Shown here: piece by piece, positions 1-23,150 of the stretch
Layout: each line of letters begins with the position of its first letter
Numbering within the stretch: position 1 is the stretch's first letter
DNA from: Albugo candida
Taxonomy: Eukaryota
NCBI GenBank assembly: GCA_040437565.1
Contig: JBDOQK010000049.1
Location: 248,001 to 274,812, forward strand
Direction of reading: 5' to 3'
Length of the DNA stretch: 26,812 nucleotides
Notes under the pieces: model-generated
Databases searched by the model: none
Seen by the model: only the letters and a program-made list of their open reading frames with translations
Told to the model about the DNA's origin: nothing
Translations under genes and position numbers: made by a program

Positions 1-1026
1 TGCAAGGTCGACGATATCACGGATGTAATCAAGGTTATCGGAGCTGATGGTGACACGAACCAGTGTCCAATAATGCCATTCCAGCTAGAGCATCAATCTT
101 CCAGTAATATTCTTGCAATTGTGGCTGCTGTTCAAAACTTTGTTCAAGAAGAGCTCGATGCGTTGGAACGTCATCTCAAAGATCTGCAACAACAAATGCG
201 GCACCAATGGAGTCTCTCATGGAAAATATTGGATTCAGAGTGCATGGAAAAAATTAATGAAATCTTAGCTTCTTTTCAGCTGAATGATATGGCTCCAATT
301 CTCGATTCATCACCCTCGTGGAGCTATCTTCCTCACCGCATGTTCCACATTGTCACCATCCTTGTACCTTTTGTCTTGGTGGATTTCAATAAATTCGCAA
401 TATCATCCAAGACACTCCGACTGTGCCGACGGGTTCTCAAGCTACTGACCAAATTCATCCAAATTCGTATTCGATCAAAAGTATCAGAGTTGCCTCCCAT
501 CATCCAGCAATTATTTTGTGTCACCGGGGCTCAATTTTCACCGGCATTGCTTGAGTACATTGCGTGCATATACGATGAAACAAAGGAAAGTAACAGCGGT
601 AACGATGTGAAGAAAGCGAAGAAGAGGTCTGGAGAAGCGCTCAAACCACGCAGTGCAGTACCGATGCAATCACGGGTGATTCCTGAAGTCATTTTCGCAT
701 TGGAGCAATTTGACACCGCTTTGATACGGCTGTCACGATTGTGCAAGGGTGTAGACTTCTCGATATGGTGTCGATTGAGGCAATCGCGCGATTTTCGCTT
801 GAATCGCGATCGTATCCGGGCTTTTTTCGGGCACGATGAACCCGAGCCGGAATCAAGTATTATACAAAAAAGAAGACGTTCCAATGAGGTTGGGAGTTCT
901 TTGAATGGAGGGAGAGACGCTCTATCTGATGTAACGATTGCATCAGACGCAGAAAGCGCGAGGGAAGAGGAAGAAGAGCTTGAAAAGACTCAACGGCAGA
1001 TAGAATCGAATGAGGAATCTTCATAA
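1..1026 (+). CDS. FANCI: Fanconi anemia group I protein homologue, C-terminal part (5' truncated by window edge)
   Basis: The frame is open from base 1 to TAA at 1024-1026. The segment IPEVIFALEQFDTALIRLSRLCKGVDFSIWCRLRQSRDFRLN resembles the conserved FANCI C-terminal motif (IPxLIFxIEQ(Y/F)E..L..LS.....L......SRDF(K/R)I) as I recall it. An acidic/basic tail follows. Confidence 0.8.
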   Translation, partial: CKVDDITDVIKVIGADGDTNQCPIMPFQLEHQSSSNILAIVAAVQNFVQEELDALERHLKDLQQQMRHQWSLSWKILDSECMEKINEILASFQLNDMAPILDSSPSWSYLPHRMFHIVTILVPFVLVDFNKFAISSKTLRLCRRVLKLLTKFIQIRIRSKVSELPPIIQQLFCVTGAQFSPALLEYIACIYDETKESNSGNDVKKAKKRSGEALKPRSAVPMQSRVIPEVIFALEQFDTALIRLSRLCKGVDFSIWCRLRQSRDFRLNRDRIRAFFGHDEPEPESSIIQKRRRSNEVGSSLNGGRDALSDVTIASDAESAREEEEELEKTQRQIESNEESS

Positions 1027-1236: not shown

Positions 1237-4200
1237 ATGAGCGATTCTAGCACAAAGACGACAATATTTGTGCGCAATTTACCATTCCAAATCACATCAA
1301 AGGAGCTCGAAGATCTGTTCAGCCAAATTGGACCTGTGAAAAAGGTTGATTTGATCAAAAATAAAGGAAAAGCAAAGGACGACACCCTTACTCGAGGATT
1401 CGCATTTGTGAGATTGTAAGAACGGATTTGCATGCAGTAATTGTGTCAACTGAACGTATTCTTAGTGCATTAGAAAGCGATGCGTCACTCGCCATCGAGA
1501 AAATGAATAAGTCCGAATTTCAAGGCCGAAAGCTATGTATTGGTGCGTNNNNNNNNNNNNNNNNNNNNNNNNNNNNNNNNNNNNNNNNNNNNNNNNNNNN
1601 NNNNNNNNNNNNNNNNNNNNNNNNNNNNNNNNNNNNNNNNNNNNNNNNTTTGTGAGATTGTAAGAACGGATTTGCATGCAGTAATTGTGTCAACTGAACG
1701 TATTCTTAGTGCATTAGAAAGCGATGCGTCACTCGCCATCGAGAAAATGAATAAGTCCGAATTTCAAGGCCGAAAGCTATGTATTGGTGCGTCAATAATA
1801 TGATCCGGTAGCCCGTCTCCTACACAAATTCACTGACATCAGTACATGACATGCTATAGATCGATGTAAATCCAAAGACGGTACACTCGTTGCTCCGAAG
1901 ATGGAGGAAAAGTCTTGTGAAATTGATGTGGCGGATAAAACAAAATCAGAGTCAAAAGATATCGATTGTGTACCCACAAAGACAAAACAAAGCGAACGTA
2001 ATGCACGTCGTCGACAACATCGTCAGTTTTTAAGACAAGTGGAAGAAAACAAAGAACTGAAAGCCTCGATTGAAGACAGATCAATTGCTATTTACGGCTT
2101 TAGCGATAAGATTACAGACAAAATCCTATGGAAACGTATCAGAAAGGTTAGCAAACATGTTGACAAATTAGAGATGAAAGAATATATGCAAAGAAAAAAA
2201 GAGAACAAAATGTATGCGACACTGGCGTTCAAAATGACAAAGGAAGTGCCGATTGCTGTCAAGAAATTAGATCAACATATTTTGAAGGGGGAAAAACTCT
2301 ATGTGAAACCACTTGGAGACTTTCTTGATGCATTGAAAGAGAGAAAGGATGGACTTCGATTGATCATACGCAACCTTTCCTTCCAAGCCACCGATGAAGA
2401 CTTGCAACGAGTGTTCAGTCAATTCGGAGCTATATTCGAGGCACATGTAGTGCGTCTTCCAGTCGATTCTGTTGCTGCGGGCGATACAGCTACTAAAGAG
2501 GGAAGTCTACCAATTTTGGGAAGGAGCCGAGGATTTGGGTTTGTTCAGTTCAATGAAAGTTCGGCTGCGGCATCAGCTGTAAAAGCGTTAAACGGGCATA
2601 AACTAAAAGGGCGTGAAATTGTGGTNNNNNNNNNNNNNNNNNNNNNNNNNNNNNNNNNNNNNNNNNNNNNNNNNNNNNNNNNNNNNNNNNNNNNNNNNNN
2701 NNNNNNNNNNNNNNNNNNNNNNNNNTGCGTCTTCCAGTCGATTCTGTTGCTGCGGGCGATACAGCTACTAAAGAGGGAAGTCTACCAATTTTGGGAAGGA
2801 GCCGAGGATTTGGGTTTGTTCAGTTCAATGAAAGTTCGGCTGCGGCATCAGCTGTAAAAGCGTTAAACGGGCATAAACTAAAAGGGCGTGAAATTGTGGT
2901 GGATTTTGCTGTTCCTAAAACTGACTATCTAAAACAGAATGAGGAGAGTGTCAAAAAGAGTGTCGACGCTGTGATAGATGATGCTGAGGCTGGCACTGAC
3001 GCAGAATCGCTAGCTGATGCAGAGATAGACGCTGACGTGGAAACTGAGCTTCAAGATGAAGACATGGCTGACATTTCAGCAGATAGTGNNNNNNNNNNNN
3101 NNNNNNNNNNNNNNNNNNNNNNNNNNNNNNNNNNNNNNNNNNNNNNNNNNNNNNNNNNNNNNNNNNNNNNNNNNNNNNNNNNNNNNNNAGTGTCAAAAAG
3201 AGTGTCGACGCTGTGATAGATGATGCTGAGGCTGGCACTGACGCAGAATCGCTAGCTGATGCAGAGATAGACGCTGACGTGGAAACTGAGCTTCAAGATG
3301 AAGACATGGCTGACATTTCAGCTGATAGTGATGAAGATAAAGTTGAATCCGATTTCGCAAATGAAGAGGGGGACAGTGAAGACGATACTGCCGTAAGCGA
3401 CATGAATGAAGCCACGACGGAAATCGAAGAGAAATCTCGAACAGGAAATCCGGACACGAATGAGCAACTTGAGCGAACATTATTCCTTCGAAACGTATCA
3501 TTCCAAACAACAAATGAAGGACTAAAGACTTTTTTTCAGACATTCGGCTGTGTAGAGTATACGCGAATAGTATACGATACAAACTCTAGATTGTCCAAGG
3601 GCGTTGCTTTCGTTCGGTTCAAGGACATTGAACCTGTCAATTATCTACTGGATCGAGCTCATGCTATTCAGAATCTTCTTCAAAATACTCAAGAAGATCT
3701 CGCTGGTCGAAATGCCACAACGTCCAAGAACGAACATGGTATGACGAATGTGTATACCGCCAGTGCTCTATCCGATGGTTCCGCGCTGATACTAGACGGA
3801 CGGATACTCAATTTGGCAAGAGCCGTTCGGAAAGAGGAAGCAGTTGAATTGGCCAGCGTTACACCTGCCAGCACTAAGTCGGGAAAAGACAAACGGAACT
3901 TGTACTTGGCCTATGAAGGAACCATCAACGTTAACAAGATCTCGACCGACCAGTTGATGCTTCCAAAACTCGATATTGAAAAACGACGGCGCGCATTGAA
4001 AGAGAAGAAGGAAAAGCTCAAAAATCCGATGTATTTTATATCTCCAGTCCGACTTTCTTTCCGAAATCTTGCATCACACGTCGATGACACGATTCTGAAA
4101 AAACTCGTACGAGATGCTGCTGTCACTGGAATGGGACATAATCTGGTTCAAAAGAAGGAAATCAAAGCAGAATTTCAGCTTCCATTGCAGGACAAATCAA

Positions 4201-4904
4201 AGATTCCTGTCAAAGTGCGGATGGCCAAAGTGATTCGTGACCAAACTTCCGTCCGTCCTGGTAAAATTGCTCGCTCTCGTGGATACGGATTTGCAGAATT
4301 CGCCCATCATGTTCATGCGTTGTGTGCATTGCGAGAACTGAATAACAATCCAAAGTACTCTTCATTTGCTGCAGGAAATCGGTCAAATTCTGTGGCAGAA
4401 CATGAGAAATCGCGGCTTATCATTGAATTTGCAATAGAGAACCATACGAAGCTCAAGTTACGAGAGAAGAAGCAAAAGGACCAACAAAAGAAAATGGCGA
4501 CGGACAAATTACTAAAGCAAAATCAAGAAGCTGTACTTCAAACAGAGTCGACAAAAAGTGAGACCAAAAAATGCAATCGTGGCGCTCGACAACGCAAACG
4601 GAAGCGGGAATCGGAATTGGAATCTCATGGAAAACCCGATGAGAGGATGAAGGAACACCACACAATTGATAAAGCTGAACTTGCAACGACAAAGTTGAGA
4701 CGAAAGACGGATTCAAGTGTCGAAGGTCACCACAAGTTAAAGAAACAGAGACGTATCGCCCCCAATATGACCTCATCTTCTCGCAAAGCAAGAAAACAGC
4801 TGGCCAGCACTGAGAAGGAGCGTTCATTCGATACAGTTGTGGCTGAATACAAAAATGCCATTTTCGGACGCGCACCAAAAGTAGAGGAACGGTGGTTCAA
4901 GTAA
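1237..4904 (+). CDS. NOP4: Nucleolar multi-RRM RNA-binding protein, RBM28/Nop4-like (60S biogenesis); spliced and interrupted by three gap-associated duplications
   Basis: RRM motifs: TIFVRNLPF...RGFAFVRF; LIIRNLSF...SRGFGFVQF; TLFLRNVSF...SKGVAFVRF; LSFRNL...SRGYGFAEF..H.HALCALRELNNNP...RLIIEFAIEN. Also an acidic linker and the Nop4-typical DKRNLYLAYEG and KLKNPMYFISPVRLS. Predicted introns are 1416-1465 (GTAAGA..TTAG) and 1787-1859 (GTGCGT..ATAG, in the second copy of the duplicated exon); both restore the frame. Stop at 4902-4904. Confidence 0.88.
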
Positions 4905-5672: not shown

Positions 5673-6403
5673 GGAGTAGACGTGCTGTTTTGAGGAGAGA
5701 CAAAGGCAAATCTAAGAATTTGCATGTAAATTTCATCTCGATCAGTAGCAATATAATTCGACCATCCCGTATACAAGTTCATTCTTTGATTTGAGTACAT
5801 CTCAGCGTCCTCGGTCATGCGCGGAAATGATAAGCATTCCTCAGTTCCTTCGATTTCGTCGTTAATCAAACCGAATTCTGGGCAATATTCCGTAGCGACT
5901 ATTAGTAGTTGCGTACTCGATCATCTTGCCGCAAGAAATCCGTACACACATTACTAAACGAGGCTGCTGATTCATTCTCTTCGTTCAAGATTGCGATGTT
6001 CTATTTAAATCGGTGCTCAAAGGTTTCAAATCATTCAGCGTGTTTGCTTCCTCAGTTCTTTAGAGCCCAAGCGTTCACATATAACTGTTCTTTATGAAAC
6101 ACATAATTTTGCATTCAATAAAGATAAACATCAATTTGTCCAGCTACTAACCTTATGCCACAGTATTTACTCTAATGAACTACAAAAGCACTCTAGAAAG
6201 GTACAGCGAGACGATTAGAAATCGTTTCGTTTCACGTGTTTTGCAGTCTTTCGTCATTTTACAAACTCGACGTTGTTGTTTCTTCCGCTGCGACTCCTCG
6301 ATGATTTCAGATTTTGGCATGATTCCTTCCTCTATTTCTGGCTCGTCTATACGTTAGATAATCAGGGTGAGAAAAATACTACATCGCTGAGGGGCAATCG
6401 GAC

Positions 6404-8174
6404 ATGACACTCCGTCACGTGATGATTTTTCATCGACATGGAGATCGAACTCCGCTTGTTCAGGAAGTAGCACCTCTTATGCGCATGTCTGCAAGCGAAG
6501 TGGAATGGTGGAGTACACGAATCGCAACTCCCGAAGAGCTCGATAAACTCAGTGCTACAAGCGACGTTGTCGGCCAAGAGGAACACATTCCGATGTATGA
6601 AGTGCTCAACGAAGGGGGAATGCATCCTTTGGGCCAACTAACCTCGAAAGGTGTAGCAGAAATGCGACTGGAAGGTGTGAAATTTCGCAATTTGTACTAC
6701 GAAAAACTGTTNNNNNNNNNNNNNNNNNNNNNNNNNNNNNNNNNNNNNNNNNNNNNNNNNNNNNNNNNNNNNNNNNNNNNNNNNNNNNNNNNNNNNNNNN
6801 NNNNNNNNNNNGCAATCGGACATGACACTCCGTCACGTGATGATTTTTCATCGACATGGAGATCGAACTCCGCTTGTTCAGGAAGTAGCACCTCTTATGC
6901 GCATGTCTGCAAGCGAAGTGGAATGGTGGAGTACACGAATCGCAACTCCCGAAGAGCTCGATAAACTCAGTGCTACAAGCGACGTTGTCGGCCAAGAGGA
7001 ACACATTCCGATGTATGAAGTGCTCAACGAAGGGGGAATGCATCCTTTGGGCCAACTAACCTCGAAAGGTGTAGCAGAAATGCGACTGGAAGGTGTGAAA
7101 TTTCGCAATTTGTACTACGAAAAACTGTTTAGTCGAAATAATGGCAAGAGGAGCAAACTGAAAAGCGAGAAATTGAACCATTCAGATTTGTTGTATGTGA
7201 TGTCAACGAATGTACGACGGACTGTACATTCCGTGCAGGCATTTCTCGGTGGGTTTTTCCAAATAGAATCGGACGTGCATGTTGAGGGTGGAAAAGAGTC
7301 TCACGATATCATGCCGTCAAGTTGCTGGTCTATCTATGCTAAAAGTTGGTCTAAAGCTAAAGGTCAGACTGAAAGCAAGCGGTTTCTAATTCGGACACAT
7401 GAGAAAAATTGCCTTGCACCCTCACACTCACTTCGTGTGTTTTTTGATTTGGAGAGCGTTCTTGAAGAAGAATTGAAGCTATTGGATCAAGCGAGGCAAG
7501 AAAAGGTGATTGACTTGGGTCAGAAACTTCGCCAAGCTCTCAAATTACCAGCGGAGGAGCACATTCCATGGACATTGAGTGAGTAACTACCAATCGTTCT
7601 GTACTTGAACATCCATTCATGTAAACTCGGTCTGATAGTTCGCGATACATTGTCTTGTCAAAGACATCATGGTTTGGACTTTCCTGAAGGAATCACACAA
7701 GAAATGTACATGGAACTGGTCGAGTACGATGCGTGGCTCTGGCATCGGTTGTATTCAAAACGATCATTCGCGTCGCCTGCTATGAAGGAAGCTGTGGCAT
7801 TTTTATCATCTCACATTGAATCAATCATTTTTCGGCTCAGGTGTGATTCAAAATTCTCGCTTTTTAGTCACAAAAGAAGGGGTCCGAAGATGTCTGTATT
7901 TTCCGTACATGACAACTCGATTGTAGCGCTGATAAATTCCTTTCAGATTCGAACAGGAGACATCTTACCTGATTATGGAGCGACCTTGGTATTTGAGATC
8001 CACGAAATACGTAAAAAACATTTTTATGTCAGGGTTTTATATGACAATCGCGAATGCCAGATTTTAGAGGCCGATAGTGCTCTTGGGTGTCCATACGATC
8101 ACTTGTTGAAGCGAGCTGCTGAATTCATAAACGATCCAAAAGAGTCGGACGAAAGGGTCGAGCCTTATTCATAA
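6404..8174 (+). CDS. Histidine acid phosphatase (branch 2; ACP6/lysosomal acid phosphatase-like). The 5' part appears twice across a gap; the complete copy is 6822-7578 + 7639-8174
   Basis: Catalytic RHGDRTP motif, GQLTxKG, STNVRRTVHS and HD motif (SVHDNSIVAL), then PDYGATLVFE. Intron 7579-7638 (GTGAGT..ATAG, 60 nt) removes the in-frame stop at 7584-7586. Confidence 0.9.
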
Positions 8175-10038: not shown

Positions 10039-10980
10039 TCAGTCTTCTGCGGACTTGTGTTTCTCTTTCTTCTCGGCTGATTTATCGTTTTCTGTCTTCT
10101 TTTTGGATTTCTTCGATTTCCCCCCCTTCTTTTTTGACTCAATGTTGTCATCATGATCCTCCTTGTGAGATCTGCCTTTCTGACCGCCCGCTGATTTTAC
10201 TTTCCCAGCCCCACCTCCCTTTCCTTTTTCACCCCCGCCTCCCTTTCCTTTCTCACCCCCGCCTCGATTTTCGTTGTCACCCCCGCCCCCCTTTCCCGTC
10301 TTACCATCGTCTTTGTCTCTGATCGGGCAGTACTTTTTATCTTCATCGGAGTATCCTGTGCCACCATTGACATTGTCCACGTTATAGTAGTAAATGTAAG
10401 CTTGGCCACCACCCTCATCTTTAGCTTGTGTTGATAGCCAATATAACTGGAACGTTTTCGCCTTAGTACATAGCTTCGTATTGTTCAATTTAACTTTAGC
10501 CACGCCCTTGTTTCCAGGATTGTTATAGATCCGAAAATCATCAACGTGCATGATTCGGATAGCATCGCAATAAGCCTCCATAGGCCCTTGATGTCTGACA
10601 CCTTCGACTTTTTTTGAATTCATTCTATTTTTCCCGAAGTAAATTACATTTGGGAGCTTGATAGCTGGAGCAGTTTTGAGACAATACCCCGTATTTAAAT
10701 CTGCACCCTTCTCCGGTTTACCAAACTTTAGAACCATGTCTTTCAAACTGAGTTTATCCGGGTTCCATACAGAAATAAACATATCGTAGGTTTTCCGTGA
10801 ACTGGTTCTCGGGAATTTCTTGCCTGGGAAGACTTTGTCAAAATCAAGACGAGCTGCAAAAATATTGTTTTTGTTCTTATCTGCCCGCAAACAGTCTGGA
10901 CATACCATATGGCCGTGGCTTTGTGCAACGCTGACCAGGTCTGACAGGAGAAGAATGCAAAAGGTAAGTTTGAGTGCCAT
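10039..10980 (-). CDS. Secreted AA17-like copper LPMO (divergent) with Gly/Lys-rich basic tail; 313 aa
   Basis: ATG at 10980 (the ORF-track start at 11109 is a TTG). A 21-aa signal peptide MALKLTFCILLLSDLVSVAQS ends just before HG, making His the predicted mature residue 1. GVRHQGPMEAYCD matches the AA17 HxGPCExWxD motif, and FQLYWLSTQ...QAYIY matches LxFYWLA...WQxY. The family assignment is from recalled motifs, not a database search. Confidence 0.78.
   Translation of the reverse strand: MALKLTFCILLLSDLVSVAQSHGHMVCPDCLRADKNKNNIFAARLDFDKVFPGKKFPRTSSRKTYDMFISVWNPDKLSLKDMVLKFGKPEKGADLNTGYCLKTAPAIKLPNVIYFGKNRMNSKKVEGVRHQGPMEAYCDAIRIMHVDDFRIYNNPGNKGVAKVKLNNTKLCTKAKTFQLYWLSTQAKDEGGGQAYIYYYNVDNVNGGTGYSDEDKKYCPIRDKDDGKTGKGGGGDNENRGGGEKGKGGGGEKGKGGGAGKVKSAGGQKGRSHKEDHDDNIESKKKGGKSKKSKKKTENDKSAEKKEKHKSAED
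10200..10262 (-). repeat. Short 24-nt coding tandem repeat (GGGEKGKG-type, ~2.5 units) in the tail of LPMO 1
   Basis: The translation RGGGEKGKGGGGEKGKGGGAGK corresponds to + strand ccccgcctccctttcctttytca units. Confidence 0.8.
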
Positions 10981-11047
10981 TGAGACTCGGTGTGCCAATT
11001 TAATAATGCCGAAACTCTTACAACTCGAATCAAAAAGCTCTCTTGGA

Positions 11048-11092
11048 GTGTAAAGACCGATCGCATGAAAGACACGAGTGCACCAACATGCG
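11048..11092 (-). promoter_or_regulatory. Conserved upstream block of LPMO 1, shared with LPMO 2 (putative core promoter or 5' UTR element)
   Basis: gtgtaaaga...gaaagacacgagtgcaccaacatgcg here versus gtgtaaaga...gaaaggacacgagtccacctacctgcg at 23206-23247. Both lie about 55-115 nt upstream of their ATG. Confidence 0.5.
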
Positions 11093-14000
11093 AGTGTTCT
11101 GCAGGCCAATAACCATATCTAACCACGTAATCATGACACTGAAAGATTCTCGAAAAAAAGGCATTCTCGCACCTCTAACAAGAGCCAGTGATATCAAACA
11201 TGGTAGAGTAGATGCATTCGGTTCAGGGCTTTATGCAATCATCGTTCTTATGAATTGTTCTTCTGACCACATAGCAAATACTTGATTTGCTGAATCATAG
11301 GTAATCTTGCATACATCCAACAACGCATGCTAACAAGTAGTGATGAGGGTACCACGTAAGAGTCAATAATCTTACGGAAGGATCAGAGTGGAGACAATGA
11401 CGTATTTGGGTTCGCGAAAGAGGTATGTTCACGTTGATTTTAATCTCAGAACTTGCGTATAGTGAGACCTGTTTTCTAATCTGATATTGAATGTAGAGGA
11501 GATGCTGATGCCTGATCTCTGAAATATCTGGACGGGGTATATCTTTCGTATTTAGAAAAAGAAAAAGCTCTCGGTAAGAGACACNNNNNNNNNNNNNNNN
11601 NNNNNNNNNNNNNNNNNNNNNNNNNNNNNNNNNNNNNNNNNNNNNNNNNNNNNNNNNNNNNNNNNNNNNNNNNNNNNNNNNNNNGCGTATAGTGAGACCT
11701 GTTTTCTAATCTGATATTGAATGTAGAGGAGATGCTGATGCCTGATCTCTGAAATATCTGGACGGGGTATATCTTTCGTATTTAGAAAAAGAAAAAGCTC
11801 TCGGTAAGAGACACTCAAAAGTAACTCAAAATGGCTGGGCTGGCATAGCTATACAGAGGATGGATTGGGGAAGCGATGATTTTGATGGGGGACACAAGTA
11901 CGAACTTTTCGTAGCTGACAAAGAAACACACTTTGCTTGAGAATAGCAGCATGGGGGGTACAATGATCAACGTCAAATACTTTGCTTGTTGAAGCCGGCT
12001 ACGTTTGGGGAGTATTTTGTTCTTTTGTCCATTTGAATGTGATCATGTAAGACGCTAAAGAAAGTGATTGCGCCAATGTATTTGATAGATACAATGATTG
12101 AGAAGACATCCTGATGTAACGTCAGGTCCAAATGTAATGCTTCTGGTCGGCAAATAACTTACACGCCGATGAGAACGCTTAGATACAGAATGCTACGATG
12201 CTCCGAGCAAGCTTCTATTAACCAAAATGCCGCAAACACATTATATTCCAACTGTCATTGATGTATTCTGGCATGGCGCATATTATATATTTAGCTTTAA
12301 AGAATCATAAGATGGCTTCTTGAACCGGGCAACGTTTCAAATGACTGATAAGTTCTCGCGAAGTGATCTTTCATGGCTTTGCCAACGGGATTTACGTCGA
12401 TTCGATCACTGTACCGCACGTTGTTACCTCTCACAGTAGCTAAATCTACGGGTATGATTTTGATAGAAACTTGGCATTTCCTGTAACAAGAGTATGCTTT
12501 GGCAACTTTTTGTGCAAGCGGGTATAATGAGCTCTGGTCGCAGTCAACTAAACAGGTCACATTGCATATATGACCGCAAAGTGACCCCTATTATCTCTAA
12601 AACAACGAGATGTACCCTTCCCTTCGCCGCCCCTCGTAGTAAAATCCTTGTGCACTTTTCAGCTTATTCTTACTTCCAATTCCCTGCGGTGGCTACCGTG
12701 TAGTCNNNNNNNNNNNNNNNNNNNNNNNNNNNNNNNNNNNNNNNNNNNNNNNNNNNNNNNNNNNNNNNNNNNNNNNNNNNNNNNNNNNNNNNNNNNNNNN
12801 NNNNNCTCAAATCTATTCTCAGGGGTGGTGCGAGAGAAAGTTTGCCTGTGGATAGATTTACATTCCGTCTGTGAAAAATCAGCGGACCGCAATGTCTTTT
12901 GTGAAGAAAGGGCCTCAACTTTTGTGTGATTTAGCAAATGGTCGTGAAAGGCAGCAAAACGTCATATCAAAAATGATGTAAAATGATGTAAGATTTCTTT
13001 CTTATCATAAGTTTGGATGTCAATAAGCAGGTGAACAGTGGCAAAACATATGAGCAGTTGTGACTCCATGTCCTGGAAAAGGCGATTATTGCACAGACAC
13101 AGATTCTATACCCGCTCTTACTCGCGGACTTGAATTGTCGACTATCAGATGCAATGCACCTTAGCAAGGCCCGCATTCAAGCAAATTATGAAGTGTAAAG
13201 GAATGCGTTTTCTGCAGGTAATACGCTTACTTCCGGCACCCCGTCTGCGCGATTTTGCGGCCGACAAAATTCAGTGAGCGATACTCAGGAATTTAGAGGG
13301 GGAAATACTTCTCACTACCTCAGAGACCGCCCAATTAGAGATAGATGAGCGTAAACGGTGGTAGAATACAAGTGATTTCTCNNNNNNNNNNNNNNNNNNN
13401 NNNNNNNNNNNNNNNNNNNNNNNNNNNNNNNNNNNNNNNNNNNNNNNNNNNNNNNNNNNNNNNNNNNNNNNNNNNNNNNNNCGCCCAATTAGAGATAGAT
13501 GAGCGTAAACGGTGGTAGAATACAAGTGATTTCTCAAAATGAAAAGGAAAATTGTATGCTAACCATGATGCTTCTCTCTACTCTAGCGTACTGTCGTTTC
13601 TATTCGCGACATGGAGTACGAATAGAGGCGTATAAACGTTACTCATGGCCGCACAATGAACATGATGCGAATCGAAGATCCGGAGACACACGGTATCTGT
13701 TCATAACGAAGCAGGATCACGGTAGGAAATAGTGCAGACTATGCTAGGTTTTGAAACAGATTTGCTGCTATCCTTATCTTTGATATTGCAGCCATCATGA
13801 AAAAATCACACAGATTACTCAAGCAAGAATTCCCTATGTCGTCCCCTTTCTTTCCGAGCAATACGCATCTGTTTGTGAAGGAACTCGTTTGCTTGATATA
13901 TAATTGTGGCTCATATACAACACGCACCAGATTGATTTTAACGTTGGGCATACGTTATTCAGATATCAGTCACGATACGATCTTGTACTGCTCACTGCTA

Positions 14001-17000
14001 TTTTGAAATTATGGCTGCAAATGATGAACCTACAACCCTGATGAGAGCAGGATGGTCAGAGATTAGTATGCAGATCATTTCAACGTGATAACATGTGACG
14101 AACTGTTTGGATTGGATTTGCCCTCGCAAGCACGATAGAGAAGTCATGTTTGGCCAGTTTGTCAAGTTGAAAGTGTCTCTAAGGAGTTCCTTGCATAAAA
14201 TGTGTAGTAGCTGAATCATCAGTCTGGTAGCGTTTCTCTGAAAAGGATCTGGTGAGTTGTTTTGCGTCTGAACTATGAATTCATGTAAATAAGCCTTCAT
14301 AGAAAAAGAACTGCCGCACTAAAGTCGAGGTTTCTCATCGGTAAAAACAGCTGTATGCAACTGTAATTCGTAGAGCGAGACAGGATTGAAAAGGGAATAA
14401 AGACGTTCTTGGGATACCCCAGAAAGCGCGATAGAAGAAGGTGTAATCTCCAGTGCGTACTCTGGTGATATTTTGTGAGCAAGGATCTTGGTTAGAATCA
14501 CGCTGAATGACTACCTTATGTCAAGCAAGATGTACAATTGCCGAAAAAGCTTCCCCACCTTTTGACGACTGCGGAAACATTTAGGGCCAATGCATTTTTA
14601 CTGCTCCCTCGCGTCAGCATCAGAGATAAAAAAGCGAACGTCAAAGGCGTAGTGAAGGTTTTCTCTACGAGACAAACGCCCATATTTGGAAAAGAAAGTT
14701 GACCAGGCAACGCAAGGCCTGGACGTAGCTACGGTTGTGGCTCACGCATAGTATACACTTGATGCAGAATATATCGTAGTTCCTGATTGCAAAAGACACT
14801 TAAAAGCACCTTCCGCTTGTAAGGTTTCTATACTTGACTCGGTGGGCCGGGGTTTTGGGCATGGTAAAGATCAATAAAGTGACATACTCTTTCATAAAAA
14901 ATATTCGGGTGGAGTGGTAAATGGCGCTAAATGCAATTAATTGAGTGAAATACAAGGAAGGAGGATTTTGTGCGTGTCTTGGCAAGCTAGAGATTAATAC
15001 TAAACGTCTTACCAGCATTTTCAAGGCTTTTAAATATAAGCAGCATCGAATTCAACGTTGTAGATTACGAAGTCTGCGCAAACCTAATAAACAATGAAGC
15101 CTGTTGCTGACGCCATAACTCCCATTGAAAAGAGGCGAAAGAATGATGTTGACTGCCTAGATCCTTAATTATACGCAACTGTATAAAAACATGGCAGATC
15201 TGATAGTCACACATCAAAGACCATTGCCTAGAAACCCCATTGACTATCTATGCATGAGGCACGTCTTGAATCCACAATATGATTATCTCACTATCTCTTC
15301 GGTTCGAAGGTTTGTGGCACCTCTTTAGTCACGCTGGGCCTCCTTTGACAATATATTCCGAGACAGCAAACTCCGAGAGATTCATAGCACTTCGAAGAAT
15401 TATGTCGAGCCCATGAAGTGGTGAAAAATGGATTAGAATCAACATTCTGGAGTCCCCATTCCGCAAAATTGCGAGAATTGACGAAGATGGTACGGAGGTA
15501 ACAATAATGCAGCAACATGCCAACAATGTGGAGGTAAACAGCGATGACGGTATTTGTGATATTAAGAGGAGAAAACATGTCCGAGAAGGAGGAGTCACAA
15601 AATAAGGCGCTCCAGTGAGGTGTGGATGCGTTGCTCCTAGATACGAAGAATTAGGAGAGAAAGGTTTTGCTTTGGGTTTGACATTGATAACGCTTACACT
15701 AATCATTGGCTAGGCTGATGACGAACTTTGGAACTAATCATGAATTTAAACGATATTCCTTTCAGACCGGTAATTCCCATGTCAAGTGATACCTAACAAA
15801 AACAAAGAGTAAAAGTAGAGGCCTCACTTTGTTGTTGATACTGGCTAAGGGTGCCTGTAATGCTTGTCCATCATCACTACGCTGTCAGCGAGATTATCCT
15901 AGAAGCTCCTAGTAGTGCTCTCGATCAAGGTATAGCAATAGGCTTCTCACTTTCTGTTTCTTTCTTCTTCCGAACAATGACCTCCTCATCATATGATGCC
16001 ATCATTGAAGTTGTTCTAACAAATTGCTATGTCAGTACCGATAGCATAAAGGGCGCACTACTAGCATTAAGTCGGTCTTGCCATTTGACTGAATTGGTCT
16101 CTTTTTTTTGTACAATTCTTCAGAGAAGTGGATGTGGTCGAACGACTTCGAAATTATCTAAAATTGATCATCACCAGTTTGCCATCGATGCATCCAAGTC
16201 AAAAGTATGTGCAGGAGGTAATATAGTACCGGTCCAGTACACACGATACGATGGTATGCCATGTGAAAATTCAAACATGTAGGAGCGCTGGTCCCTTCCA
16301 GTTGCTTTTTTGTTCTTACACGGCAGAAGCTATGGTCATCTTGAAGAGAACGAAAGAAGGATACTGATGCTGACGAGTTCTTGTGCATGCGTCGACAATA
16401 TCCTTCTTCGAGAGGGTCGTGTATCGAATCGATCGGATTTTTTAGTTGCACGACATCGTTGCACTGGAAGATCTTTTTATCATGCTACCTATATCTGGAT
16501 TTGATAGTTCGCGCCAATTACGTTTGCGGTCACAATGAAAGATCACCTTTTTGGCACCTAGCTGTTCTGCATTAGGGCATGCGCAGCAGTGCTATTTATC
16601 GCAGAATTACAGATGTTATACAAAAGACAATCGCACTTTTATTCCGCTGGGGGCAAGTGATAGTCATGCTGGTTCACTTTTCGTTGTATTGTTACCACAT
16701 CGACAAGGGCCTGAACTACAAAAAGAGCTAATAGAGCCGGCTTGAAAATTAGATTATGGTGCGTAAATTCACTCGCACCTGTGAGAACGCACGATGACCA
16801 AATAGCCTCAAATACATATTGCTATTACAAACGAAAGGAAAGTTTAATCACAGGCGTATACAATACGTCAATTTTAGCTGTCAAGACCCTTTGCCTGAGC
16901 TACCTACCGCTGATATGAAATCTGAACTTTGGTTGATTAGTCAGCTTAGATGCGGAGATGGTAGAAAGCAACACTCTTCCGAATAGACCTTGTCTGTTGT

Positions 17001-17498
17001 TCTTAAATGGATTGCGTACAGTAAATTTCTTACTCCTTCATGTCCATCAAACTTGCTCCTCAAATCTTGTCCTACGTAGCACAGAAATTCAATGATCTTA
17101 AGCATGTTATTTTGGAATATGTATGGAGAAATTTGATTCATGCATCAATCGAAGAGACTCGTTGTAATGTTTTACAATGCGAGAATAGAGTACACGACGC
17201 TACCTAGGTGATTTACACGCCCAGATGTTGAAGTAGCCACAGGTACAACAATCTGTCCGAATAAGGTTGCTTCGCACAACGTCTCACAAGGTTTTTGTCA
17301 AAGTATTTGATTCCTTTTCATGCTTTGGTGATGTTCCCGAAACTAAGTGATATATCTGAACAAGCTTGGGAGGAAGCTAATAAATGACTAAAAGCGCAGT
17401 CTGCTTCGCGAAGTACTTCGTTTTGACATCGTATTGCACCCAGCATGCTTCTCCGAACACCAGGTTTCCCTAAGACCATAGTCAGCTAATTTGAGAAG

Positions 17499-18572
17499 AA
17501 ATCTCAACTAGCTTGGATAGGTCTACGTGGGGAAGTCCAGATATCGTGCACTGGAATTTGTACAACCAAGTTGCTTTGATGGCTTGTTCCACATAAACGG
17601 GGTTCAAATGTATTAAGTGGATGTAAACGTTTCTCGCGCAAACTCTTAAGTAGTAATTTTTCAAGCCGAAATTATGGCGTAATTTTTGTGCAACAGAAGT
17701 CACCTAGGGATGTTAGACTACACATCAATGAAGAAATCGATGATGATGTGAGCTTTCCATTTCGTACGAGTCTATGTGGCGTTTTAGAATTCGCAAAATC
17801 AGAGGCCTATAAACCCGCGATCAAGGTATTGGGTTCTTTTGCTGTGACAGGCTGAGTTTGGAAGACCTGGTCGGATTTGAGTCGAATGACGCTGTGAATT
17901 TTACCTATCTTACACATACTTCTGAAGTCGGACTGTTTATTTCGTAATTGTGATGTAATTACTTTGATGCATGAGAGAAACCCTCNNNNNNNNNNNNNNN
18001 NNNNNNNNNNNNNNNNNNNNNNNNNNNNNNNNNNNNNNNNNNNNNNNNNNNNNNNNNNNNNNNNNNNNNNNNNNNNNNNNNNNNNAATCTCAACTAGCTT
18101 GGATAGGTCTACGTGGGGAAGTCCAGATATCGTGCACTGGAATTTGTACAACCAAGTTGCTTTGATGGCTTGTTCCACATAAACGGGGTTCAAATGTATT
18201 AAGTGGATGTAAACGTTTCTCGCGCAAACTCTTAAGTAGTAATTTTTCAAGCCGAAATTATGGCGTAATTTTTGTGCAACAGAAGTCACCTAGGGATGTT
18301 AGACTACACATCAATGAAGAAATCGATGATGATGTGAGCTTTCCATTTCGTACGAGTCTATGTGGCGTTTTAGAATTCGCAAAATCAGAGGCCTATAAAC
18401 CCGCGATCAAGGTATTGGGTTCTTTTGCTGTGACAGGCTGAGTTTGGAAGACCTGGTCGGATTTGAGTCGAATGACGCTGTGAATTTTACCTATCTTACA
18501 CATACTTCTGAAGTCGGACTGTTTATTTCGTAATTGTGATGTAATTACTTTGATGCATGAGAGAAACCCTCG
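17499..18572. repeat. ~487-bp direct duplication flanking a 100-N gap (17499-17985 = 18086-18572); probable assembly overlap artefact
   Basis: The same sequence aatctcaactagc...gagagaaaccctc occurs on both sides of gap 17986-18085. Confidence 0.85.
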
Positions 18573-18734
18573 TTTCGCTCGGTAAGTCTGTCGCTCGATG
18601 ATTTAAAGTGACTGGTCATCTCGCAAGTCTTATTCCATCGGAGAAAAGTAAACACGCTGTCCAGAATCATTGCTGGAATAGTATTGTGCCTCTGTTTGTT
18701 ATATGATGTGTTAGCACTCAGAGTCTTGATAATA

Positions 18735-20426
18735 TTAGTCGAACTCATCTTCGTCGTCGTTACCGTCGTCAGCATCTCCATCTTCGTCAAACAAAGCATC
18801 CAAAATCTAGTCAGAAAAAATAAGGCATTCGATGAAATGCACACTGGATATAACGGCAATACCGTGTCATTTTCACTCAATGCCTCTTCCACATAAGTCA
18901 TAAATGATTCGTATGCGTCACTACCTTCTCCTTGATGTCCTGCCACGTCTAAGAGCTGCTGATACATCTGCAGCATATCATGAGAAGCGCAATCAAGATC
19001 TTCAGAGTCTCATATCAGCAGTAAAATTCTTTGTACATCGAAGGAGAATTCCACATTTTGGACCCGGGCATGCTCTAATAAATCAGTCGCCACCAAATAA
19101 TCGCAGCGCTTGACCAGTGCCATCAAAACAGGATGGTACAATCGCTCTGTTGGGATTACTTCTTTTTCTATGTTTGAGCAATTAGTAGCATTAGTATTGC
19201 TGAACACGACCNNNNNNNNNNNNNNNNNNNNNNNNNNNNNNNNNNNNNNNNNNNNNNNNNNNNNNNNNNNNNNNNNNNNNNNNNNNNNNNNNNNNNNNNN
19301 NNNNNNNNNNNTAATCGCAGCGCTTGACCAGTGCCATCAAAACAGGATGGTACAATCGCTCTGTTGGGATTACTTCTTTTTCTATGTTTGAGCAATTAGT
19401 AGCATTAGTATTGCTGAACACGACCCTCATCTGGCAAACCTGCAGATAATTCTCGAATGATATCCACAGCTTCCTCGAGCATGTTAGCCTGTACTAACGC
19501 TTCCAGAATACCGCTATAAGCCTGTAAATCCAGTAATATTCCGAATTGTGATGCTTCATCATAAATTTCCATGGCCTCCTTCAGCATGTCATGACGTAGA
19601 CAGCCATCCACTACATAGATAAAGGCCAGTTTTGTGTAATCATCCGCTTTGAATCTGGCGTTTCGGAACGAATTGCGTAGAATCTCCAGGGCACTTTGAA
19701 CGTGCGAGCCAGTTTCGCTTTTCGCAAGAAGAATCACCAGCTTTTGAGAAATTTTGTCATTTGGATGCTCAGGAAGTCGTTCAAAGAATCGTAGCGCTTT
19801 GACAAAATCACGGTTGGCGATAATCAAGTCCAGATTCTGAGCAAGATTTGTTTCCTCGCACACTTGTACTCGAGGAGACNNNNNNNNNNNNNNNNNNNNN
19901 NNNNNNNNNNNNNNNNNNNNNNNNNNNNNNNNNNNNNNNNNNNNNNNNNNNNNNNNNNNNNNNNNNNNNNNNNNNNNNNCTTCAGCATGTCATGACGTAG
20001 ACAGCCATCCACTACATAGATAAAGGCCAGTTTTGTGTAATCATCCGCTTTAAATCTGGCGTTTCGGAACGAATTGCGTAGAATCTCCAGGGCACTTTGA
20101 ACATGCGAGCCAGTTTCGCTTTTCGCAAGAAAAATCACCAGCTTTTGACAAATTGTGTCATTTGGATGCTCAGGAAGTCGTTCAAAGAATCGTAACGCTT
20201 TGACAAAATCACGATTGGCGATAATCAAGTCCAGATTCTGAGCAAGATTTGTTTCCTCGCACACTTGTACTCGAGGAGACGCTGATGAAAAAAGAAGTTT
20301 GCGTTGTCGATGGAAATCATTCACACCCGAGTAACTAATCATAAAGTAGCATCTATGCTCAGATCTTAGTAATTGTTTTCCAGGTTGGCCAAAACGAGCT
20401 TCATTTAAGAACGATAATATTCTCAT
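18735..20426 (-). CDS. Pentatricopeptide-repeat (PPR)-like helical repeat protein, probably mitochondrial; spliced, with gap-associated duplications
   Basis: ATG at 20426, with an Arg/Ser-rich N-terminus. PPR-like units: AFIYVVDGCLRHDMLKEAMEIYDEASQFGILLD, QAYSGILEALVQANMLEEAVDIIRELSAEKEVIPT, RLYHPVLMALVKRCDYLVATDLLEHARVQNVEFS. Predicted introns 19439-19382, 19036-18968 and 18862-18807 are all GT-AG and frame-restoring. The protein ends in the acidic ILDALFDEDGDADDGNDDEDEFD* (TAA 18737-18735). Confidence 0.78.
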
Positions 20427-22087
20427 CGCCAAAACTACTGTAATCTTCTAGATATAANNNNNNNNNNNNNNNNNNNNNNNNNNNNNNNNNNNNNNNNNNN
20501 NNNNNNNNNNNNNNNNNNNNNNNNNNNNNNNNNNNNNNNNNNNNNNNNNNNNNNNNNCTCATCGCCAAAACTACAGTAATCTTCTAGATATAAGCGTGCT
20601 CACCCAGTAATTATTTATTTGTATCCAGCTGTACTGAAGGTAATATCATTGAGACAAATATGTAGAGATCTGTAGCCCGGGTGCGAGTTTACATGATACA
20701 ATAACTTCTGATTCGTCAAAGCCGTATTTTTCATTTCAGAACAACTTACGGAAATTTACGATGCAAATAACTTCAGGACAGGGTAAGATCAGTGCCATCT
20801 CTATCATTTGTCCATTGATGCAAAGTCAAGTTCAGAAAATGTCGTAGGTATATTATTACCTGCTTGGTTAGAATCAAAAAATCAATTGATTTGCTACTAC
20901 TTTCTAGAGCAGAAATAAGTCTAGCGTATTCTCGTTCACAATCGCTTTACTCATTGTAATACAATCTCGTGGCGCAAGCTTGTAAATAAAAATGCGGAAA
21001 CGTGGTGGGAACCAGCTCATATTCCAGGAGTTGACGCCGGTGAAGAGTGTCATAAAATATATGAGGACGTGCAAACCCATTGAGGTGTACATTGTCGACA
21101 AAGATTTTGAAACGTCTTCGTTTTACATCAAAAGATCTCAAGAAGACAGCTTACCTCGTCAACGAGGTTGCCAACAACATCTACTCAATGACTCTTCTGT
21201 CACTACCAAAAAATTCTTACCACCTGTGTCACGATTCCAGAGAATGCACCATCTCTCATCATTATATGTCATTATGAGTGGTAGTTGTAGGAAGTTATGC
21301 TTCACAATAGATAATGCTAGGTAGGGCCATGCCATATCATTCTGTACAAGCTTCCAGACAATACTTCATTATAGTGTTTGCAAGCTAAACATGATCGAAG
21401 GTACGGGTCTCGTATAAATTATACAAATAAGGTTGCGTCATGCGTATACATCATTAGGAATAGTCTGCTTTTGAGTCTTTATGTACGATATTCGTCAACT
21501 GTAGTTCGCACAGATGATGGTGATCTTCTCTAGTAGTCATAAATAAAGTAATTTCAGCTTTAGAAGTACGCATTCACGTCCAGAATATGAGCGAGCTTTA
21601 ACAAGTTATAGGTCATATAAACTAACCGATAACCCACGCTTCGGGAACTGTTAGACAAAATTCTACTCTCACCACGCATGTTGCCCGCTACAGCTGTTAA
21701 TCTTTTGCTGAAGTTAGTAGTGTTGCTCTACACAATAATATATTTGCGCTGATTAGAGTCTTGTAGGCTGTTTAACATATCGTACATGATTCTTCATATA
21801 CCAGGGAGTAACTGGTTTTTATACATGCTATGTTGAACGCGCGGACGAACTGCAAGTGCCGTACAAGGCCAGATACGAGAAGCTTGGCACATTGCAAAGA
21901 AACCTTTGTCTTTAACTGATGCGATAACCCGAAAGTATTTACAATGCTAATTGATGAAGTAATAGGCATGAAACACAAAAATCAAGGNNNNNNNNNNNNN
22001 NNNNNNNNNNNNNNNNNNNNNNNNNNNNNNNNNNNNNNNNNNNNNNNNNNNNNNNNNNNNNNNNNNNNNNNNNNNNNNNNNNNNNNN

Positions 22088-23150
22088 CCTTACCCACCAT
22101 TGACACCTCAGGTTTTTGCTTCGCTGGAGCTTTTTCAACATCCTTTTCCTTTGTGCTCGTGTTGTCATTTATTTTCTTGTGATTCGAGCCTCCACTTTCC
22201 GGTGGGTTGGACGTCGGCCCTCCACTTCCCGGTGGGTTCAACGTCAGTCCTCCACTTTTCGGCGTGTTGTGATTCGACCCTCCACTTTTCGGCGTAATGG
22301 GACTCGAGCCTCCATTTCCCGGCGTAGTGGGATTCGAGCCACCATTTCCCGGCGTAGTGGGATTCGAGCCTCCATTCCCCGGCGTAGTGGGAGTCGAGCC
22401 TCCATTCCCCGGCGTAGTGGGATTCGAGCCTCCATTTCCCGGCGTAGTGGGAGTCGAGCCACCATTTCCCGGAGTAGTGGCATTCGAGCCTCCACCATTC
22501 GGCGGACACCTTAGGTTATATTCACCGGACGTTCCTGGGCTAGCATTCTCATCGATGTTGAGATAATATACATAGACCTGGCTATTTCCTTCCGCTTTTG
22601 ATTGTGATGCCGTCCAAAATAATTGCAAGGTCTTAGCCTTAGCGCACCAACTAGTGTTTGTTAGATCAATTTTAGCCAAGCCCTTGTTTCCAGGGTTGTT
22701 AATATCCTGGAAATTCTTGAAAACCATGATACGAATGTCATCGCAATAAACTTCAGCAGCTCCTACGTGTATGACACCTTCAAGAAAAGAACCTCTTCTC
22801 CTTCCAAAATAAATGTTCTTAGGAAATTTGACAGGTGCACCGTTTTTATCACATTGACCGGTCTCGAAGTTGCCTCCATTCGTTGGCACTGCATACTTTT
22901 GTATAATCTCTTTGACACTGAGTGTGTTGGGATCCCAGACAGACTTGAACATTTCATAATTTCTATCCGTTCCGGTTTCTGGGAATTTCGTGCCTTTGAA
23001 AACTTTTCCAAAATCAACTCTTCCAACAAAAAGACTTTTCTTCTTTATATCTTTTTGTGCGCAAGCTGGGCAATATACAGTCCCGTGGCTCTGCGCAACG
23101 CTGAGCAGTTTCGATAAAAGTAGAAATGAGAAGATAGTTCTATATGCCAT
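22088..23150 (-). CDS. Secreted AA17-like copper LPMO (divergent), paralogue of 10039-10980, with Gly/Ser/Pro/Thr repeat tail; 3' end lost in gap 21988-22087
   Basis: ATG at 23150, a 21-aa signal MAYRTIFSFLLLSKLLSVAQS, then HGTVYCPAC. Motifs: GVIHVGAAEVYCD, NNPGNKG, LQLFWTASQ...SQVYVYY. It aligns with the first paralogue over the whole catalytic domain, including all six Cys. Confidence 0.78.
22179..22493 (-). repeat. 30-nt coding tandem repeat, ~10.5 units of GGS(N/T)PTTPGN degenerating to GGxxxxPxS
   Basis: The + strand unit cccggcgtagtggga(t/g)tcgagcc(t/a)ccatt(t/c) repeats with a 30-nt period. Confidence 0.95.

Follow-up and report, generated by a model that had tools for sequence, protein, structure and literature searches.

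Two secreted AA17-type proteins of Albugo candida and the Albugo-specific clade to which they belong

Introduction

What are the two secreted proteins encoded by a pair of similar genes in Albugo candida, and do they belong to a known enzyme family? We addressed this question for a window (here the whole stretch of DNA that was analysed, 26,812 nt of contig JBDOQK010000049.1, with a G+C content of about 40%), in which a sequence-only reading had pointed out two co-oriented paralogues about 12 kb apart at 10039-23150, here referred to as gene A and gene B. That reading regarded both as highly divergent relatives of the AA17 family of lytic polysaccharide monooxygenases (LPMOs), possibly a distinct subclade and possibly annotated only as hypothetical proteins. 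In Phytophthora, AA17 enzymes act as virulence factors early in infection, and the families of the CAZy database are defined by sequence. AA17 is described as oomycete-specific (PMC10080066), with 424 entries in CAZy (PMC10195143) and about 46 copies per Phytophthora species (PMC8393829).

Results

The gene pair and its predicted copper-site residues

Both genes are intron-less open reading frames (ORFs) on the minus strand, and their start codons are separated by 12,170 bases. According to the ORF list and its translation, gene A (10039..10980) is a complete single-exon coding sequence of 313 amino acids (P0001), and gene B (22088..23150) can be followed up to an assembly gap, as also seen in the alignment with its orthologue P0023. 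The two products share 41% identity over 278 amino acids in BLASTP (E 5e-70) and 48–49% identity in the domain (213–218 amino acids, tblastn), and no third copy was found in the window by tblastn. The two genes are tandemly retained paralogues.

Each protein begins with a 21-residue hydrophobic leader ending in V-A-Q-S and followed by H-G, with small residues, Ala at -3 and Ser at -1 (10918..10980 in gene A and 23088..23150 in gene B, both on the minus strand). Cleavage before His22 is predicted from the -3/-1 rule and from a mixed profile that places His22 opposite residue 1 of the AA17 chains solved by crystallography, 8s6s, 8s71 and 6z5y. The catalytic domain follows, at 10321..10917 in gene A (residues 22–220) and at 22491..23087 in gene B, both on the minus strand; it is supported by AlphaFold2 and Foldseek, together with a profile search for gene A and phmmer for gene B. 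The second histidine is His130 in gene A (10591-10593), within HQGPMEAYCD, and His128 in gene B (22767-22769), within HVGAAEVYCD. The Q-x-Y near the domain end consists of Gln193 and Tyr195 in gene A (Tyr195 at 10396-10398) and of Gln191 and Tyr193 in gene B (Tyr193 at 22572-22574), and the motif NNPGNKG starts at residue 153 and residue 151, respectively. The orientation and spacing of the pair, the VAQS leader before H-G, the HxG(P/A)xExYCD motif, the Q-x-Y and the common NNPGNKG had all been read correctly from the letters alone. In the gene B domain, His22 and His128 are the sole histidines.

We further analysed the conservation of these residues in an alignment of 23 domain rows, 7 from Albugo and 16 from elsewhere (positions below follow gene A numbering). 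The first histidine of the mature chain is kept in all 21 rows that have an N-terminus, the second histidine in 23/23, the Gln of Q-x-Y in 22/22 and its Tyr in 21/21, and the four residues are invariant across all Albugo rows. By alignment alone, the two proteins have the residues for the histidine brace, the axial Tyr and the second-sphere Gln expected of AA17, in which an axial Tyr is present (PMC13726380). The ATCUN-like H-G-H start of mature gene A was considered as a feature of the clade and rejected, as the corresponding start is HGT in gene B and HGY in A. laibachii.

Sequence evidence for AA17 membership

A profile was built from 14 oomycete AA17-like sequences outside the group of Albugo and Pythium oligandrum (the classic-only profile, searched with Z=15,000). 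It matched gene A with E 8.6e-18 (64.6 bits) and gene B with E 1.4e-16 (60.7 bits), in both cases from His22 to about residue 210, while the best of 400 shuffled controls reached 6.5 bits. The 14 sequences are in turn tied to solved AA17 enzymes, with P0033 matching PsAA17B at E 1.7e-96 and P0013 matching at E 1.9e-14. An Albugo-only profile of the 7 rows, searched against PDB, returned exactly three matches at E<=10, namely 8s6s, 6z5y and 8s71 (E 0.0044–0.026), and a mixed profile of 10 rows matched the AA17 chains of PDB from their residue 1 (E 1.7e-20 to 1.4e-18). Transitive phmmer links also lead to AA17. At the level of sequence, these profiles settle the relationship to AA17, and the proteins show the sequence similarity by which CAZy delimits this family. 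Their cluster members, Albugo candida and Albugo laibachii, are Oomycota, as expected of AA17.

Pfam reported no family at E<=10 for either protein. However, 0/7 classic AA17 proteins tried there came above the cut-off, Pfam having no AA17 model, and its silence on genes A and B is therefore uninformative. The description of the pair as highly divergent holds for the clade, which has a long stem, but not for the reach of the family profile, which finds both genes easily. Their divergence being within such reach, they would probably be assigned to AA17 by a scan of the dbCAN type as it stands.

Predicted structure

AlphaFold2 was run on the mature domains without templates, using alignments of 23 rows for gene A and 24 rows for gene B. 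The resulting models are confident, with a mean predicted local distance difference test (pLDDT) of 88.6 and a predicted template modelling score (pTM) of 0.87 for gene A, and values of 86.3 and 0.86 for gene B. Foldseek against PDB gave four matches per model at E<=1e-3, and every one of them is an AA17 chain, which includes the PiAA17C structure 6Z5Y whose comparison the sequence-only reading had proposed. For gene A these matches have E 3.2e-8 to 2.2e-6, with template modelling (TM) scores of 0.59–0.63 relative to the query (TMq) and 0.67–0.71 relative to the target (TMt); for gene B they have E 3.2e-7 to 1.0e-6, TMq 0.63–0.66 and TMt 0.72–0.74. The next matches (AA9, FnIII, CopC and others) have E>=2.7e-3 and TM<=0.37, and these values, together with the absence of any Pfam family at E<=10, speak against membership in AA9, AA10 or AA16. 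Nor do the proteins resemble X325: chain 6ibh_B ranked 25 against the gene B model (E 3.7e-2, TM 0.23) and was absent among the listed Foldseek matches of the gene A model. Both models contain a helix at mature residues 40–50, corresponding to the long helix at residues 35–51 that has been named as peculiar to AA17 (PMC10195143). The classic-only profile, the Albugo-only profile, the transitive phmmer links and the two models all point to AA17, and the family assignment first suggested from motifs is upheld.

Relatives and phylogeny

The gene A domain was searched exhaustively with phmmer against 1,835,955,588 cluster representatives (E<=1e-3), and 12 proteins were obtained in all, including the query P0001 itself (100%, E 2.0e-145). 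Four are Albugo relatives with 50–55% identity (E 5.2e-66 to 3.2e-47), namely the gene B product, two A. laibachii proteins and the fragment P0008, which was counted as Albugo from its placement in the tree. They are followed by Pythium oligandrum TMW61726.1 (P0009; 37%, E 7.8e-29) and UniParc UPI00043EFE64 (P0010; 34%, E 1.8e-14), and then by five further relatives, including proteins of Phytophthora fragariae and Globisporangium ultimum, with only 24–27% identity (E 5.1e-7 to 3.3e-4). These five carry G-P-C-E-x-W-C-D-D and W-Q-V-Y-I-N-C. The scan argues that nothing closer to gene A is present within that library. Nine further sequences came from a profile search, among them PITG_04947 and proteins from P. 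capsici, P. cinnamomi and P. pseudosyringae. Word-indexed homologue searches returned few proteins (3 and 14, and for P0009 only the query itself). The best cluster in the ESM Atlas, a 703-member oomycete "hypothetical protein" cluster, scored 0.83, below the 0.9 level, and serves as a lead only.

Maximum likelihood (LG+C20+F+G4) was then used to infer an unrooted tree from all 23 domain rows, in which the non-Albugo sample consists of the 16 relatives returned by the searches, and long-branch warnings apply to gene B, P0005, P0012 and P0015. The seven Albugo rows form one clade (support 100/100) on a stem of 1.27 substitutions/site, and the proposal of a distinct subclade is borne out to this extent. 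Together with P0009 of P. oligandrum, to which the clade is sister, and P0010 they make up a nine-row group (100/100), set apart from the remaining 14 rows. Gene A groups with two Logan-derived proteins that are 91–92% identical (97/98), whereas gene B is a separate deep branch inside the Albugo clade. It follows that the duplication that gave rise to genes A and B is old compared with the variation inside the 90%-identity cluster of gene A.

Cysteines and charge of the Albugo domains

The domain of gene A contains six cysteines (27, 30, 100, 138, 171 and 218), and so does that of gene B (27, 30, 100, 136, 169 and 215). Cys27 and Cys30 form a C-P-x-C motif five residues past His1, which is present in the 6/6 Albugo rows with an N-terminus and in 0/16 others. 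Cys100 is found in 7/7 Albugo rows and 1/16 others, Cys218 in 7/7 and 0/16, and Cys171 is kept in 22/22 rows of both kinds. Since six cysteines are kept in the mature domain, three disulfides with a rewired pattern may be expected; we predict that Cys138 pairs with Cys171 and that Cys27, Cys30, Cys100 and Cys218 form the other two. The family-consensus cysteines (those of D-C-G, G-P-C-E, N-x-C and Y-x-N-C), which are shared by consensus among the rows sampled here and are not a formal criterion of the family, are absent from the Albugo rows; that of Y-x-N-C, Cys198, occurs in 11/16 non-Albugo rows and 0/7 Albugo rows. The substitutions at the consensus motifs that had been named from the two sequences are thus real and clade-wide in this alignment. 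Cysteine positions vary within accepted AA17 too, as Cys138 is replaced by Leu in 4/16 non-Albugo rows, all from Phytophthora and including a close relative of PsAA17B. The exact N-N-P-G-N-K-G is present in 5/7 Albugo rows, and the two sister sequences carry the related N-x-P-x-(N/D)-K-G.

The charge of the domain is reversed as well. The six full-length Albugo domains have an isoelectric point (pI) of 8.25–9.56 and a net charge of +2 to +14 (+13 in gene A), as against a pI of 4.05–6.33 and a net charge of -1 to -20 in the other 14 rows. The Albugo fragment P0008 has a pI of 6.40 and a net charge of -1; P0009 of P. oligandrum has a pI of 5.95 and a net charge of -2, and the truncated P0010 a pI of 9.30 and a net charge of +7. 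What merits follow-up, in our view, is the rewiring of the cysteines together with this reversal of charge.

C-terminal tails

Behind the domain, both proteins continue into low-complexity tails. That of gene A (residues 221–313; 10042..10320, minus strand) consists of 27% Lys and 26% Gly, has a net charge of +10 and a pI of 9.75, contains no Cys and is encoded in part by a 24-bp tandem repeat (x4.2, at 10196-10296). The members of the gene A cluster (P0016–P0022, A. candida-like) vary from 289 to 321 amino acids, partly in the copy number of the 8-residue repeat. The gene B tail (22088..22490, minus strand) is rich in Gly, Thr, Pro, Asn and Ser, with 30-bp repeats at 22249-22494 (x8.2) and 22189-22292 (x3.5); mucin-like tails have been described for AA17 (PMC8615602). 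In P0023 and in the A. laibachii proteins P0005 and P0006, the tail closes with a conserved polybasic run, after which come a single Cys and E-V. This end is missing from gene A, and its counterpart in gene B lies inside the assembly gap. The cysteine may serve an intermolecular disulfide, by analogy with fungal AA9 LPMOs such as CoAA9A, which are dimerised by a single tail Cys (PMC10990093). A CaaX-like reading of the A. laibachii ending K-C-K-E-V was rejected, since these are secreted proteins and the orthologue in A. candida extends beyond the motif. Tails in the clade are not uniformly cationic, that of P0006 having a net charge of -3.

Gene models, annotation and neighbouring genes

The ORF listed for gene B ends at 21939, which is an artefact of reading through a scaffold gap of 100 N at 21988..22087. 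Its orthologue P0023 from another A. candida assembly has 379 amino acids, of which residues 1–344 alone align, to 23150..22089, and the last ~35 residues were not found beyond the gap. The last ~35 codons of gene B and its true stop therefore lie within it. As this gap is one of the 5/15 in the window without duplicated flanks, sequence is really missing there, and the 3' truncation of gene B is due to the assembly and not to mutation.

Gene B is deposited as KAL0584208.1, "hypothetical protein ABG067_005982". The orthologues in the other A. candida assembly, CCI48887.1 and CCI48882.1, are each an "unnamed protein product" of the same 37,259-base contig, and CCI48887.1 (A. candida) belongs to the protein cluster of gene A. 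The expectation that the pair would be annotated only as hypothetical is accordingly right for the deposited records but not for every database, because the gene B orthologue has the automatic UniProt name "Chitin-binding type-4 domain-containing protein", which is LPMO-like.

Other genes in the window are a FANCI-like fragment (FANCI solenoid-4; 1-1026, plus strand), an RRM RNA-binding protein (1850-4904, plus strand), a branch-2 histidine phosphatase (6371-8174, plus strand) and, between the LPMO genes, a PPR-repeat protein (19405-20447, minus strand). These are ordinary housekeeping genes, and the pair therefore lies outside any obvious cluster of effectors or carbohydrate-active enzymes. 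The ~8 kb at 11100-19400 between the paralogues contain short ORFs alone and four assembly gaps; two of these ORFs were tried against Pfam (15860-16282 and 18545-19009) and neither had a match. The window holds fifteen 100-N gaps in total (e.g., 1549-1648, 2626-2725, 6712-6811, 17986-18085 and 19880-19979). At 10/15 of them the preceding 54–486 bases are repeated directly after the gap with 97.7–100% identity, and these duplicated flanks are overlapping contig ends joined with Ns. The joined overlaps produce false duplications inside genes, including those for the RRM protein, the histidine phosphatase and the PPR protein.

Discussion

Taken together, genes A and B likely encode secreted, copper-dependent LPMOs of an Albugo-specific AA17 clade, whose most probable substrate would be the de-esterified homogalacturonan of the host wall; this assessment is made from sequences and from models derived from them. 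Cleavage of the signal peptide would turn His22 into residue 1, and its amino group and imidazole would hold one copper ion together with His130 (His128 in gene B), with Tyr195 (193) as the axial residue and Gln193 (191) in the second sphere. Once reduced, this site would use O2 or H2O2 to oxidise and cut the polysaccharide chain. Homogalacturonan (pectin) is favoured as the substrate because of the homology to three characterised AA17 enzymes and because of the strongly basic domain, and it might be attacked at sites of penetration or at haustoria. The disordered tails, Gly/Lys-rich in gene A and mucin-like in gene B, would act as spacers or anchors outside catalysis.

Several observations weigh against this reading. 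Single sequences find AA17 poorly: the gene B domain matched 8s6s, 6z5y and 8s71 in PDB with E 0.015, 0.034 and 0.14 only, with an unrelated VP5 chain at E 0.04, and full-length gene A matched the AA17 chains with E 0.45–0.53, for which a chance match to Integrator subunit 4 was better (E 0.045). The fold does not count as a line of evidence separate from the sequences, because the alignments given to AlphaFold2 contained classic AA17 sequences. Moreover, three cysteines present in 16/16 non-Albugo rows occur in 0/7 Albugo rows, namely Cys97 (of D-C-G), Cys134 (of G-P-C-E, with Met, Ala or Val instead) and Cys149 (with Phe instead), and Trp192, which adjoins the second-sphere Gln, is found in 14/15 non-Albugo rows and in 0/7 Albugo rows (Gly, Ser or Ala). 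With these residues lost, the environment of the copper site may differ from that of known AA17. Charge complementarity between the basic domain and pectin is presumed, and the characterised AA17-like rows are acidic to neutral yet pectin-active. Finally, Albugo is an obligate biotroph and is expected to limit damage to the wall.

A fortuitous resemblance of motifs, with no LPMO relationship at all, is very improbable. It could appeal to the lack of Pfam families and to the single-sequence PDB values (E 0.015–0.53), but Pfam has no AA17 model (0/7 classic AA17 above the cut-off), the profile values of about 1e-17 stand against 6.5 bits for the best shuffle, and AA17 alone falls below 1e-3 in Foldseek with both models. 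At the level of homology this explanation is already refuted by the Albugo-only and classic-only profiles and by both Foldseek runs. A genuine AA17-fold LPMO might act on something other than host pectin, either by remodelling the oomycete's own wall of cellulose and beta-glucan or on another host polymer, and we regard this as unlikely. Remodelling of own-wall cellulose has been proposed for AA17 copies of Saprolegniales, and biotrophs have few AA17 genes (PMC8393829); other specificities are considered possible within AA17 (PMC10080066), and the stem of 1.27 substitutions/site and the changed residues near the copper site would suit such a shift. However, all three characterised AA17 enzymes cleave pectin (PMC11992081), and the net-positive domain is better suited to a polyanion than to cellulose. 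Neither protein showed a carbohydrate-binding module (0 Pfam families at E<=10), in contrast to the Saprolegniales copies, which are described as fused to cellulose-binding domains (PMC8393829).

It is less likely still that the LPMO fold has been kept in proteins that are no longer mainly enzymes, i.e., copper-binding or cationic apoplastic proteins whose basic domain and tail attach to pectin or to microbial envelopes and serve in adhesion or against microbes of the phyllosphere. The gene A tail (27% Lys, 26% Gly, net +10, pI 9.75) on a domain of +13 would suit such a role. A. candida apoplastic proteins with cationic disordered C-termini inhibit Gram-positive leaf bacteria with an activity that tracks net charge, according to a preprint (bioRxiv 10.1101/2022.05.16.492175), and LPMO-like copper binders without activity exist, such as X325 (PMC8615602). 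Yet neither accession occurs in the main text of that preprint (0 occurrences, its tables and supplements being outside the scope), the X325 structure 6ibh was found just at rank 25 (E 3.7e-2, TM 0.23), and not all tails are cationic (P0006, net -3). The invariant His, His, Gln and Tyr in all Albugo rows argue for a kept copper-oxygen site. A further thought, which we hold to be improbable, is that the Albugo clade would be a functionally re-tooled, cationic AA17, with rebuilt disulfides and copper-site surroundings, and with a biotroph-specific task unlike the bulk breakdown of pectin. The CPxC beside His1, the lost Cys two residues from the brace, the lost Trp next to the Gln and the cationic or mucin-like tail may be read in this way. 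If so, possible tasks would be a tightly localised opening of the wall at the haustorial neck, or the binding or attack of competing leaf microbes at their anionic surfaces.

The family and its mechanism are already known, and it is also in print that biotrophs have few AA17 copies and necrotrophs a large family (PMC8393829). We found no literature on Albugo AA17 or Albugo LPMOs, though the phylogeny of the founding AA17 paper (Science 2021, doi 10.1126/science.abj1342) and the supplements of PMC11992081 and PMC8393829, which lay outside our search, may already include Albugo AA17 genes. The significance of a secreted AA17 pair in this genome is that a small, strongly diverged AA17 lineage, with its copper site under constraint, has been retained in an obligate biotroph whose arsenal for wall degradation is reduced. 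With two to three genes per species, it offers a compact test case for the role of LPMOs in a parasite that needs live host cells, and the pair can show how far the AA17 scaffold, in its cysteines and surface charge, changes while the brace is kept. Two deposited records could also be renamed from "hypothetical protein".

Comparison with known systems

The closest characterised enzymes are PiAA17C (6Z5Y) of P. infestans and PsAA17A (8S6S) and PsAA17B (8S71) of P. sojae, which cut demethylated pectin at C4 (PMC11992081). The models of genes A and B match their fold with TM 0.59–0.74, at only 19–21% identity in the structural alignments. Common features are a His directly after the predicted signal peptide, a second His within H-x-G-(P/A), the Q-x-Y, an equivalent of Cys171 and a disordered tail past the domain (dCTR, PMC8615602). 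In contrast, the Albugo proteins are without the cysteines of DCG, GPCE, NDDC and KNC and have the new CPxC after His1, Cys100 and Cys218; the Trp before the Gln has become Gly, Ser or Ala, and a basic domain stands in place of an acidic or neutral one.

CoAA9A, an AA9 enzyme of Colletotrichum orbiculare, is similar in combining a secreted LPMO domain with a long disordered tail, and its lone tail Cys (PMC10990093) has a likeness in P0023, P0005 and P0006, where such a residue stands beside a polybasic stretch. It belongs, however, to another LPMO family, the best AA9 match to the gene A model having E 2.7e-3 and TM 0.29, and the tail of gene A is without Cys. The nearest proteins outside Albugo are the uncharacterised P0009 and P0010. 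They differ from the Albugo clade in keeping the classic Cys97, Cys134, Cys149 and Cys198 and in having no CPxC, but have in common with it the N-x-P-x-(N/D)-K-G motif, a Tyr instead of Trp at position 137 and the stretch TTQA(K/R)DEGG.

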